Shown: positions 58,208-64,000 of the stretch, one piece after another | Layout of the letters: each line of letters opens with the position of its first letter | Position numbering within the stretch: the stretch's first letter is position 1 | Assembly (NCBI GenBank): GCA_004764695.1 | Contig: SMSO01000032.1 | Location: 5,674,483 to 5,738,482, forward strand | DNA length: 64,000 bases | Source of the DNA: Schizochytrium sp. TIO01 | Lineage: Eukaryota > Protista > Bigyra: Labyrinthulomycetes | Direction of reading: 5' to 3' | Made by a program: the position numbers and the translations under genes | Notes under the pieces: generated by a model | What the model was told of the DNA's origin: nothing | Database searches by the model: none | The model's input: only the letters and a program-made list of their open reading frames with translations

Positions 58208-58264
58208 ACATTCGATCATACCACGCGGGTAACACCTCATCTCATTCGCACTGAGAAGTAAAGT
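58208..58264 (+). pseudogene. 5S rRNA gene, nt 1-57 only, interrupted by element insertion
   Basis: 57/57 identical to the 5' part of the intact 5S copies, then abrupt divergence; the upstream TATA-like box is retained at -30. Confidence 0.92.
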
Positions 58265-58265
58265 A

Positions 58266-58625
58266 TCTCAGGGCCTGTCAGCTGACAATCTCTTCACGCC
58301 CACTGATAGCCCCTGCTTATGCTTAATTAATAATAGGCCAGAAATTCACTTTAGTGCAACCTGTCGGTGGACAGGCCCTAAGTACAAACTCAATTTTGTG
58401 AGGAGAAGCCGCTCTCTTAGGGCCTGTCAGTTGACATTAGACCACTAAAACTGCGAGAGAGACCTAATTTTGGTTTTGCGAGGCCGCTCTCTTAGGGCCT
58501 GTCAGATGACATGCATGTGAAAGCAGATTTTTGAGCCGCTCTCTCAGAGCCTGTCAGTTGACATGCATTTGAAAGTAGGATTTTGAGCTGCTCTCTTAGG
58601 GCCTGTCAGATGTCAGGCCTTAAGT
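58266..58625 (+). repeat. Terminal motif array TCTYAGGGCC-TGTCAGNTGACA (5 direct copies, 1-2 inverted); putative recombinase binding sites
   Basis: Direct copies at 58266, ~58413, ~58488, ~58541, ~58592; inverted GACAGGCCCTAAG at 58370. Confidence 0.8.
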
Positions 58626-58639
58626 AATAAGATAGATGA

Positions 58640-59031
58640 TTTGCAAATAAGTCAATGAACAAGGTTTGGCCCTGAGAGAGATTTTTTTGAAATGCAAGTT
58701 GGCCCTAAGAGACCCATAAAAGTTATGCAAATAAGCCACTGAGCAAGGTTTGGCCCTGAGAGAAGAAAAAGTGCTATGCAAGTTGGCCCTGAGAGATCTG
58801 GAAAAGTTATGCAAAATGCTTCTGAGCAAGGTTTGGCCCTACGCGAAAGTTGTTTCATGTGCAAGCTGGCTCTGAGAGATCTAGAAAAGTTATGCAAAAT
58901 GCCTCTGAGCAAGGTTTGGCCCTACGCGAAAGTTGTTTCATGTGCAAGCTGGCTCTGAGAGATCTGGAAAAGTTATGCAAAATGCTTCTGAGCAAGGTTT
59001 GGCCCTACGCGAAAAATGTTTCATGTGCAAG
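58640..59031 (+). repeat. 83-bp tandem repeat (~4.7 units), two GGCYCT-type motifs per unit
   Basis: GARCAAGGTTTGGCCCT at 58657, 58741, 58824, 58907, 58990. Confidence 0.92.
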
Positions 59032-59077
59032 TCGCAATGGAAAATATCAACTCAGGAATTTCCAGGAAATCCTCATA

Positions 59078-59305
59078 GAAGGAGTCACACAAAAGAAACC
59101 TCGGTGTTTCAATACCAAGCCCCGAGAAAATTCCAAGAAACTTCTCTCGAAGGAGTCACACAAAAGAAACCTCGGTGTCTTAATACCAAGCCCCGAGGAA
59201 AATTCAAGAAACTCTCCTTAATGAGGAACCTAATAATGACCTATGAAAGAACGCTCGGTGTTTCAACACAAAAACCCGAGGAAATTTCAAGAAACTCTCC
59301 TCAAT
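59078..59305 (+). repeat. 71-bp repeat (2 tandem copies + 1 diverged partial) with CTCGG...CCGAG inverted pair
   Basis: GAAGGAGTCACACAAAAGAAACCTCGG at 59078 and 59149; partial copy from ~59245. Confidence 0.85.
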
Positions 59306-59454
59306 GATTAAAAGAGACGCGCAGAGCATTCTTCGAACCTTCTCCAAGCTTCTAGAATGTTCACAGTATCATCCTTATAATTTAACTTCATGCATTAAGT
59401 GCTCTGTGATCTCCGGGGAAGTAAACCCCAAATTATATTCTTGGTTTCTCCAAA

Positions 59455-61872: not shown

Positions 61873-61917
61873 AACTTGTTGCGTCACCCATTGCTGCTGT
61901 GACATCTATCGTCCCCG

Positions 61918-62268
61918 ATGACCGTGAGAGATTGGGAACTTAATATGTTGGAAAGTAAATATGACGTCGACGAGGAACAAGAAGAAGAAGAGCGAGACCC
62001 GCAATATGATTTGACTTATACAATGGTAGTGACACGCAAATGGATTTGGGAAATGAGGCTTCGATATAGACAAACACGCTATCAAAATGCACAATGCTAT
62101 GTCACTGGGTGTTTGCTAAGGGAGCTCCTGAATCATCTAGATTTGGAAATTGAAAATATGGGGTTCGGACATTTTTACAAAGATAATGCTACATCTATTG
62201 CTCCATTGTACGCGAAAGATCAATACTTGGACGAGCTTCGTCGCAAATTTAGTGATAACCTAACCTAA
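61918..62268 (+). CDS. Hypothetical protein, 116 aa (acidic N-terminus), element cargo
   Basis: ATG-initiated ORF with protein-like composition filling the gap between the recombinase and phosphoesterase genes; no family recognised. Confidence 0.6.
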   Translation: MTVRDWELNMLESKYDVDEEQEEEERDPQYDLTYTMVVTRKWIWEMRLRYRQTRYQNAQCYVTGCLLRELLNHLDLEIENMGFGHFYKDNATSIAPLYAKDQYLDELRRKFSDNLT

Positions 62269-62380
62269 CCTAAACGCTAACACCAACGCCTACGCCTACG
62301 CCGATGCGTTTCGTACGCAATTGAAGGTTCAACATGAAGGCTTCAAGTGCTTTATATTATATGCAAACCCCTAACCCTCA

Positions 62381-63040
62381 ATGAAACTTGTTGTGTTGAG
62401 TGATACTCATAATCGTCACCACGAGATCCATTCCCTACCAAGAGGCGACGTCATTATCCATTGTGGTGACGCTTGTAATGTTGGTACGTGGGAGGAACTC
62501 GACTCTTTTCTTTTTTGGTTCACCAATTTACCACATAAATACAAAATTTTTGTTCCTGGAAACCACGAATTTCATCATAATGACTACCATACTTGCATTG
62601 CTTTCCTTTGTGCGTATAGAGAAAAAGCTCCAAACTTTCACGTATTAATGGACTCAGGAGTTGAGATTAATGGGCTATACTTTTATGGCTCACCATATTG
62701 CAATGGTGCACACCACGTCATGAAGAAATGGTCTTTCTATGTTGAAAGCGATAATGTAAGAGAAGCTTTGTGGGCTAAAATCCCACACGGCACAAATGTA
62801 ATTATCACCCATATTCCACCATTTGATATGCTCGATAATGGTCTTGGGTGCAAACAACTCATGAAAAGAATACTCCAAATAAAACCTATAATACATTGCT
62901 TTGGTCACATTCACGAAAAGAATGGTCAAGTTCTTCTTAACCATAGTCAAGATAATACGACTACCACCTTCATTAATGCCTCATGCTACCTAGATGATAG
63001 ATGTAAATTGATAGATCCCAAGATTATCTTTATTTATTAG
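62381..63040 (+). CDS. Calcineurin-like metallophosphoesterase (MPPED/239FB-like), 219 aa
   Basis: Motifs SDTH, HCGD, GNHE, THIPP, FGHIHE. Confidence 0.92.
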   Translation: MKLVVLSDTHNRHHEIHSLPRGDVIIHCGDACNVGTWEELDSFLFWFTNLPHKYKIFVPGNHEFHHNDYHTCIAFLCAYREKAPNFHVLMDSGVEINGLYFYGSPYCNGAHHVMKKWSFYVESDNVREALWAKIPHGTNVIITHIPPFDMLDNGLGCKQLMKRILQIKPIIHCFGHIHEKNGQVLLNHSQDNTTTTFINASCYLDDRCKLIDPKIIFIY

Positions 63041-63134
63041 AGATTCGCTTTATAAGGCGCTTGCTTTGACGACGAGCATACATGAGATTTTTCTCCGATT
63101 GAGCAGCTTCACATATAGGATCATGCACTCATTC

Positions 63135-63452
63135 TTACGTCTTTGCGAATTTATCCGATAACAATTTAAATAGACCGAGTACTGCTAAACAGAATGGAAT
63201 AAATTCCACCAATTCAGAAAGTTTTTCTTTGGCATCTAATACTTTACAATTCAAATCCACATTACTAAGGACTTGAGAATAATCATCATCCTGAAACACG
63301 ATAGGTACTATGGACATATCTCCTCCAATGTCTGCAACAAACCCAGATGGATACTCTACACGCATGACTCCATCTGTAATATCACTTACAATGATATCTT
63401 CGTTCTTGAAGGTGTGCTTGAGAATCAGATACAATGCTCGCTCGAGACTCAT
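63135..63452 (-). CDS. Hypothetical protein, ~105 aa, hydrophobic C-terminal segment, element cargo
   Basis: The ORF track starts at TTG 63461; first ATG is at 63452 (MSLERALYLILKH...). AT-rich upstream region. Confidence 0.55.
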   Translation of the reverse strand: MSLERALYLILKHTFKNEDIIVSDITDGVMRVEYPSGFVADIGGDMSIVPIVFQDDDYSQVLSNVDLNCKVLDAKEKLSELVEFIPFCLAVLGLFKLLSDKFAKT

Positions 63453-63663
63453 GATGCTCAACAGAAGTGAGTTAAGGTTTTGCTTTTACAAGCTCTGGAG
63501 TAATATATACTTATTATATATAATAATCCAAGAGGCCATTCGTAAAGTTCTTTCTAAACAATCAATTGGAGTCCCGACGCACCGAACTTTATCCCAAAGA
63601 CTAGGACCATGGTAGGGTAATTAGCAAGGATCAATGCTAAATTGATAGATCCCAAGATTATCT

Positions 63664-64000
63664 TTATTTATTAGAGATTCGCTTTATAAGGCGCTTGTTT
63701 TGACGACGAGCATACCTGAGATTTTTCTCCGATTGAGCAGCTTCACATCGAAGACCATGCAAAGTCACAGCCAGCGTAGTCGAAATATCAGGGTGGAGCT
63801 CAAACATACGCTCGACCGCTTGACACGTTTCAGAAATCATTTTTCCACGATCATCCACGCTATGTTGCTTAGGTGCTTTCAAATCTTTAATCAAGCGCCT
63901 GTTCTTACGTCTTACCACACGAAGTTGTTCCCTGGTATTCTTAATAGAATAATTGTAGGTGTTGATTGGTTGCACGAAAGTTTCTAAAAAGAGTGGAAAT
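63664..64000 (-). CDS. Hypothetical basic coiled-coil protein, 3' part (start lies beyond window)
   Basis: Frame is open to the window edge; internally repeated segments (EQLRVVRRKNRRLIK / KNLRYARRQNKRLIK). Confidence 0.55.
   Translation of the reverse strand, partial: FPLFLETFVQPINTYNYSIKNTREQLRVVRRKNRRLIKDLKAPKQHSVDDRGKMISETCQAVERMFELHPDISTTLAVTLHGLRCEAAQSEKNLRYARRQNKRLIKRISNK

Follow-up and report, generated by a model that had tools for sequence, protein, structure and literature searches.

A 64,000-nucleotide stretch of the Schizochytrium sp. TIO01 genome (contig SMSO01000032.1, positions 5,674,483 to 5,738,482 of the forward strand; hereafter the window) closes with the left end of an integrated mirusvirus which, judged by its sequence, is a close variant of AurliV-2, the 269-kb mirusvirus initially called LE-Chr15 that is integrated in a chromosome of Aurantiochytrium limacinum (10.1101/2023.06.15.545109; PMC12606086). 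Here and below, statements drawn from publications concern parts of their texts and tables. A host 5S rRNA gene is where the virus begins; the first open reading frame (ORF) past the break (59455-61872, forward strand, no internal stop) encodes an 805-residue predicted tyrosine recombinase (integrase) that equals AurliV-2 ORF16. Most likely, a circular mirusvirus genome was integrated by ORF16 through a crossover in a core of the 5S gene, which left an attachment site on either side of the virus (attL and attR), with the terminal repeat arrays acting as extra binding sites. A preliminary description of this DNA had proposed the left end of a large site-specific tyrosine-recombinase element using multicopy 5S genes, a view that the identity with AurliV-2, the junctions and the catalytic residues support. 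It had left open whether the element is a giant transposon or a provirus; the AurliV-2 genes, with capsid, terminase and PolB in the published table, settle this in favor of a provirus.

The broken 5S gene and the viral genes behind it

The 5′ part of the host 5S rRNA gene that was broken by the insertion lies at 58208-58264 (forward strand). In 57 of 57 bases it agrees with nucleotides 1-57 of the window's two intact 5S genes (2306-2424 and 13074-13192, both on the reverse strand), and it diverges from nucleotide 58 on, in agreement with the perfect 5′ half ending at nucleotide 57 that had been described. Against Rfam RF00001 the split gene scores 31.3 bits, under the gathering score of 38. 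A BLAST comparison of the DNA past the break with the remainder of the window gave no match at E 0.001. A reconstruction of the 3′ half of the 5S gene by the viral end was considered and rejected, as the similarity over viral nucleotides 58-132 is matched by 944 of 5,000 shuffled sequences.

Behind the break, counterparts of AurliV-2 ORFs 16, 382, 1017 and 704 follow in the same order and on the same strands as in Supplementary Data 2 of PMC12606086, and four of the five window ORFs could thus be matched by eye. ORF16 and its counterpart are both 805 amino acids long, with the same sequence by eye over the first 400 residues, the part shown in the table. The metallophosphoesterase at 62381-63040 (forward strand; Pfam PF00149, E 2.4e-10), which equals ORF382, and the 105-residue viral ORF at 63135-63452 (reverse strand), which equals ORF1017, each differ by three amino acids by eye, and the C-terminal 111 residues of ORF704 (63664-64000, reverse strand, open at the window edge) differ by one. 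The fifth ORF, a 116-residue orphan (61918-62268, forward strand), is located between 36-bp direct repeats (61850-61885 and 62362-62397) and does not appear in the published table as far as it was covered. Because the amino acid differences are few and this extra ORF lies between the 36-bp repeats, we class the element as a close variant of AurliV-2. Further inside, the AurliV-2 table lists an HK97 major capsid protein, a terminase and PolB (PMC12606086). In the published coordinates, the distance from the predicted start (31,556) to the end of the last ORF (300,768) is 269,212 bp, i.e., the published 269 kb. The packed genes seen earlier, a metallophosphoesterase among them, are borne out by the PF00149 match and the further tightly spaced ORFs, but they are viral genes matching AurliV-2 and not the cargo of a transposon.

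Two intervals of this region, 61850-62397 (36-bp repeats) and 63004-63761 (124-bp repeats), carry viral genes flanked by direct repeats. The first interval is missing in the published copy and the second is skipped in the public sequencing run X7 (from 63003 to 63638). Viral genes are probably gained and lost through recombination between these direct repeats.

The predicted recombinase and its site

The residue set reported for an intact 805-residue ORF (R270, K301, H438, R441, W464 and Y473) is present exactly as named. A HMMER scan of 1.84 billion representatives returned six homologs with 19-23% identity that are alignable over the whole length of ORF16, and all six residues are invariant in each of them (seven of seven aligned sequences; six of six full-length rows). 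They are among only 17 invariant positions in 280 ungapped columns (P ~6e-6 given the residue types), a significance that is inflated because the homologs were found via the H-R-W-Y stretch; R270 and K301 lie outside that stretch. The best ESM Atlas families for ORF16 all belong to the recombinase clan, with feature values of 0.95 for NDC10_II, 0.95 for Phage_integrase and 0.93 for DUF3504 (Atlas range 0.93-0.96). Of the 15 named matches among the top 19 in a Foldseek search with a low-confidence model, 14 are integrases or VLF-1. ORF16 is very probably a tyrosine recombinase.

The six homologs (P0001-P0006) are 530-720 amino acids long, come from environmental contigs, are homologous over their full length without a Pfam recombinase match, and form a family without a name. 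Word-based protein search, exact look-up and DNA patterns returned no homolog of ORF16, and none was found in viral or metagenome contigs, plasmids, phages or PDB sequences. In the published AurliV-2 table ORF16 has no annotation and no BLASTp match; its RNA-seq counts are 228 and 95, under a gene identifier shared with ORF13 (PMC12606086). No RNA run is listed among the public runs carrying the sequence.

A recombinase of this kind might serve another purpose, dimer resolution or packaging in the manner of Flp, Xer or VLF-1, with a different enzyme having inserted the virus. VLF-1 is indeed among the weak fold matches, and the episomal AurliV-1, which is not integrated, carries a recombinase-like gene in mid-genome (ORF726, 792 amino acids, no annotation, Foldseek matches to NDC10_II and Flp; PMC12606086 Supplementary Data 1). 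We nevertheless regard this explanation as highly improbable: ORF16 is the first gene past the junction, which is the usual place of an integrase in phaeoviruses (PMC13236599) and Starships (PMC10104507), and the anatomy of the junction is that of a tyrosine-recombinase site. The match of ORF726 in Hondaea, GBG32787, is labelled a subtilisin and adjoins GBG32786, the match of the AurliV-2 PIF1 helicase.

The usual site of a tyrosine recombinase consists of two inverted arms round a spacer of 6-8 bp (PMC3212892), and the same architecture is found at the left junction. The 8-bp core AGTAAAGT at 58257-58264 (forward strand), corresponding to 5S nucleotides 50-57, is the inferred crossover region, within which nucleotides 51-57 form a 7-bp spacer. 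The hexamer GGCCCT is positioned five bases outside this spacer in the viral left-end arm and in the right arm of the 5S gene; read by hand, the right junction described below has it at the same distance in its foreign arm. The 5S left arm, the fourth, matches it in four of six positions. In the inferred attL (58247-58275, forward strand), the 5S left arm, the core and the viral arm form an inverted pair with dyad symmetry. Eight of nine bases are symmetric compared to five of nine in the intact 5S gene, and 69 of 25,160 background positions reach eight of nine.

Between the break and the start codon of ORF16 there are 1,190 bp occupied by three repeat families, which confirms the ~1.2 kb of repeat arrays noted earlier. 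The forward array (58266-58616, forward strand) is built of 22-52-nucleotide copies and contains five copies of an arm motif (TCTCAGGGCC-like), whereas the following array of 83-bp units (58656-59031, reverse strand) contains six reversed copies; this GGCCCT-type arm motif thus occurs 11 times in the terminal arrays, five times forward and then six times reversed. The third family (59054-59307, forward strand) has units of 71-83 bp. Of the 12 places in the window that match TCTYWGRGCC, 11 fall within 58266-58960, whereas 100 shuffles gave a mean of 0.98 matches, so that the number is above chance. Furthermore, the 83-bp array repeats the right arm of the 5S gene (nucleotides 57-68, reverse complement) as an exact 12-mer at 58835, 58918 and 59001. 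This 12-mer has five matches in the window, in the array and in the two intact 5S genes only, and none in shuffles.

Junctions in public runs, the empty site and rival explanations

Twenty public runs carry the sequence, and contigs of four of them (X1, X4, X10 and X13) were aligned to the intact 5S gene at 13074-13192. Run X4 contains the left junction, in which the 5S gene continues through nucleotide 57 and is followed by the element of the window. Runs X4 and X10 contain right junctions, in which foreign DNA (at least 255 and 173 letters, respectively) is joined to the 5S gene from nucleotide 50 on. The left and right junctions therefore have 8 bp in common, nucleotides 50-57 (AGTAAAGT). 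As printed, both right junctions begin with ACGGAGGGCCAAC, in which GGCCCT, read by hand, is symmetric to the left-end arm. The 11-mer adjoining the right junction in X4 is found in the window solely inside the array of the element, a test that is weak alone (35 of 100 shuffles reach two matches at one mismatch) and carries weight solely through both real hits being exact and in the array.

In X4, the contigs over the intact 5S site have a depth of 14,650 compared to 129 for the ORF, which is in line with many spare 5S copies, contig depth not being copy number. Left-junction contigs are listed in three (X1, X4 and X7) of the runs X1, X2, X4 and X7. In these three runs, the depth of the left-end contigs (58235-59418) exceeds that of the recombinase contig by a factor of 2.8-4.2; for a variant of 59163-59418 carrying 22-23 differences, the factor is 2.6-2.7 (X1 and X7). 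The deeper left ends are probably sister elements that have the same end and lack this ORF.

These depths bring in a further explanation, namely that the recombinase and the arrays are parts of another, smaller element that targets 5S genes, from a Crypton- or Starship-like family with several copies, and that the mirusvirus was captured by or fused to one copy of it. The virus would then be a passenger and would have no integrase of its own. The surplus of left ends and of the variant end relative to the ORF would fit such an element, as would the missing BLASTp match of ORF16 in the published table, the Crypton-related character of its closest Atlas families (NDC10_II and DUF3504), and the layout shared with Starships, which often target 5S genes (PMC11162782). 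The genes, however, continue unbroken into those of AurliV-2, and the length from the junction to the last ORF equals the published length of the virus. The episomal AurliV-1 also has its recombinase-like ORF726, neither GCR1_C nor DUF3435 is matched, and the extra left ends can equally be explained as defective satellites of the virus. On balance, a separate element is unlikely.

The published AurliV-2 table, in which ORF16 comes second, begins with a protein kinase, ORF13, whose counterpart in the window (678 amino acids, 6116-8152, reverse strand) lies outside the element, between the two intact 5S genes. The distance from the end of the kinase gene to the start of the 5S gene behind it, added to that from the start of the split 5S gene to the ATG of ORF16, is 4,939 bp, compared to 4,951 bp between ORF13 and ORF16 on the published chromosome 15. 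The kinase is 26,329 bp from the telomere in the window and 25,816 bp on the published chromosome. By these coordinates, which agree to 12 bp over 4.9 kb, the most likely starting point of the published virus is the 5S gene that lies behind the kinase. The window has this gene (2306-2424) unbroken, with a G8-domain gene of the host after it, and the virus occupies a 5S copy with a different upstream flank. Position 2306-2424 is a probable empty site, and the intact 5S gene at the kinase together with a virus in another 5S copy fits separate integrations. An exchange of chromosome ends could also alter the flank of the 5S gene, and the kinase region may be multicopy.

The G8-domain gene (1-770, reverse strand) is located 1.5 kb behind the intact 5S gene and, if 2306-2424 is the empty site, marks the DNA expected past the right junction. 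There is no virus behind the kinase in the window. The kinase matches GBG30999 best and the viral ORF1013 matches GBG31003 best; the two accessions are four numbers apart, and because of this closeness the kinase may be viral in origin.

The larger structure of the window is that of two thraustochytrid-type chromosome ends, each with a TTAGG telomere, long spacer repeats, a single rDNA unit and, further inward, 5S genes, which is the layout of chromosome ends in A. limacinum (10.1101/2023.06.15.545109). They meet at 34481-35185, where the two TTAGG telomeres are placed head to head across an N gap, an arrangement that most likely arose when two chromosome ends were joined in scaffolding. The upstream flank of the second intact 5S gene (13074-13192) resembles that of the split copy (86% over 115 nucleotides, including 57 nucleotides of 5S).

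The entry of AurliV-2 has been ascribed to subtelomeric recombination (10.1101/2023.06.15.545109). According to this explanation, ordinary homologous recombination brought in or moved the virus, the break in the 5S gene is an old scar, and its flank was changed by an exchange of chromosome ends. The preprint proposes it and also reports that on chromosome 15 the virus is followed by a complete internal set of rDNA and LORE-TEARS (10.1101/2023.06.15.545109). Chromosome ends could exchange through homology in the 57 nucleotides of 5S and in the shared repeats, and a scaffold that joins two telomeres over an N gap makes the larger structure unreliable. Homologous recombination gives no account, however, of the exact 8-bp overlap of the reciprocal junctions, the dyad, or an intact recombinase gene 1.2 kb inside the end, and while it can explain relocation it does not explain the original entry. 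Overall, we consider this explanation improbable.

Combining the junctions, the arrays and the residue set, we envisage integration by ORF16 as follows. The recombinase would bind GGCCCT-type half-sites located five bases out from the 7-bp spacer, both on the virus circle (attP) and in the 5S gene (attB). Y473 would then cut, and attL and attR would each keep one copy of the core AGTAAAGT. The terminal arrays, in which both the viral arm and the 5S right arm recur, may serve as additional binding sites for loading the enzyme or for orienting the reaction. In the reverse reaction, excision, the 5S gene would be restored and the circle freed. The host, with dozens of 5S genes dispersed over its genome, would suffer little from losing a single one. 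AurliV-2 DNA is reported to be packaged at a low level (PMC12606086), which would fit rare excision.

A number of observations weigh against this model. On the side of the enzyme, no Pfam, PHROGs or NCBIfam family marks ORF16 as a recombinase over its whole length, and since no profile family recognizes the whole ORF, the residue set alone is no proof of a recombinase. PF00589 or clan profiles have no match in whole ORF16 or in eight homologs, and Pfam Phage_integrase reaches only E 0.1 and 12.8 bits on the fragment of residues 249-332, compared to a cut-off of 27.1. The missing match to a curated profile lowers membership in PF00589, not the mechanism. The fold models are poor, with a pLDDT (predicted local distance difference test) of 33.7 from the single sequence and 45.1 with 10 sequences, and the best match of the latter in a Foldseek search of viral structures has an E of 0.028, with none at E 0.001. 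The genomic context of the ORF16 homologs was sought and none could be placed. On the side of the junctions, the far end anticipated in the preliminary description, 5S nucleotides 50-119 with the core AGTAAAGT, does occur in contigs of two of the four runs, but these right-junction contigs are short and have no physical link to the copy in the window. Among the contigs listed for X1 and X13 there is no right junction, and the left-junction contigs contain 29-30 letters of 5S, below the 31-letter bridging rule. Other elements with the same left end may own the observed right junction. No excised-circle junction (attP) is present among the 24 loose ends listed, from contigs that drop rare forms. 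Finally, the empty site rests on published coordinates, and the internal rDNA and LORE-TEARS set on that chromosome is unexplained by simple insertion.

Two further kinds of contig depart from the intact 5S gene. At window position 13138 (5S nucleotide 55), other contigs of X1 and X13 exit the gene at about nucleotides 55-60 into at least 255 letters of other sequence, possibly another element aimed at almost the same spot. In X10, at window position 13081, a 5S copy ends near nucleotide 112 and is followed by other DNA.

Comparison with known systems and significance

The element shares with the published AurliV-2 its genes, their order, near-identical proteins and a subtelomeric position next to rDNA, and differs from it in the extra 116-residue ORF, a few substitutions and the 5S copy that it occupies (10.1101/2023.06.15.545109; PMC12606086). 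In the portions of the AurliV-2 publications that were covered, no integrase, split 5S gene or attachment site is named, and the table begins with the kinase outside the junction. Among mirusviruses, AurliV-2 is the sole chromosomal integrant known (PMC12768974).

The closest parallel among giant viruses is offered by the phaeoviruses (Ectocarpus endogenous viral elements, EsV-1 and FsV-158), which have a tyrosine recombinase near one end, recombine attP with attB, and carry inverted repeats round the core as well as repeats at the ends (PMC13236599, PMC12993054). Phaeoviruses, however, are members of the Nucleocytoviricota that integrate at many sites through a core of 2-5 bp (CC), whereas the virus described here belongs to the Mirusviricota and has an 8-bp core at a single fixed place within a multicopy RNA gene. 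The core is AGTAAAGT and not CC, and the capsid of the published copy is that of a mirusvirus, with no Nucleocytoviricota capsid in the parts covered.

Fungal Starships have the recombinase as their first gene, a large body, disrupted 5S genes and direct repeats of 6-16 bp matching an internal 5S motif (PMC11162782, PMC10104507). The same layout, with the recombinase first and a direct repeat matching 5S, is found here. Starships, however, are driven by a DUF3435 captain and have no virion genes, while capsid, terminase and PolB are encoded in the published copy of this virus. DUF3435 (PF11917) has no match in ORF16 at E up to 1 (Pfam), and the earlier label "Starship-like" must accordingly be read as an analogy and not as membership.

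Cryptons (CryptonS and CryptonF) likewise have a eukaryotic tyrosine recombinase, with a feature profile similar to that of ORF16, as well as hosts among the stramenopiles and short terminal direct repeats (PMC3212892). They are small elements that carry little else than the recombinase; their repeats measure 4-6 bp (TATGG in CryptonS), and CryptonF has a GCR1_C domain (PMC3212892). None of these features is found here. The present element continues into viral genes and has an 8-bp core, and GCR1_C has no Pfam match in ORF16, nor do residues 500-805 have an Atlas match. In its working, the element resembles phaeoviruses and Starships and is a member of neither.

In a lambda-type prophage, a tyrosine integrase gene adjoins attP, the overlap is 7 bp, the core sites are inverted, extra binding sites are present and the target is a tRNA gene. 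In the model above, the integrase next to attP, the 7-bp overlap, the inverted core sites, the extra binding sites and the choice of a conserved RNA gene are all common to the two systems. They differ in that the host here is a eukaryote, the target gene is not rebuilt, and ORF16 has no sequence match to phage integrases. Mirusviruses and tailed phages are members of a common HK97 capsid realm (PMC12768974).

A literature search, in which three papers were found to name AurliV-2 or LE-Chr15, gave no report of a mirusvirus integrase or a split 5S gene, the Current Biology version and the preprint supplements lying outside that search. Neither recombinase nor integrase occurs as a word in the main text of either AurliV-2 paper, recombinase was not found as a word in the parts covered of PMC12768974 and PMC10827195, and in those of 10.64898/2026.07.28.741200 it was found solely for a YqaJ protein. 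The suggestion that no such system had been described in thraustochytrids thus does not hold for the element, which was already published; the virus was known, and what appears to be new is its integrase, its target and its junctions.

With a predicted integrase and with attL, attR and attB defined, the entry of AurliV-2 becomes a testable cycle. If the model is correct, the left boundary of AurliV-2 would be redrawn, and the predicted recombinase would explain how the only mirusvirus reported as integrated in a chromosome entered the genome of its host, in the way that a phage becomes a prophage. There is perhaps an even chance that, beyond this, mirusviruses of the AurliV-2 type are true temperate viruses of eukaryotes within the realm of tailed phages and herpesviruses, which use an unnamed family of tyrosine integrases to enter one fixed base of the multicopy 5S gene, still move between copies, and mobilize satellites that share their left end. 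Under the integrase model, a relative of herpesviruses would have a prophage-like way of life, and large eukaryotic mobile DNA would have converged on 5S genes or tyrosine integrases in a third case, after Starships and phaeoviruses. Thraustochytrids are industrial producers of oil, and an enzyme able to place ~270 kb in multicopy 5S genes would also be of practical use in them.

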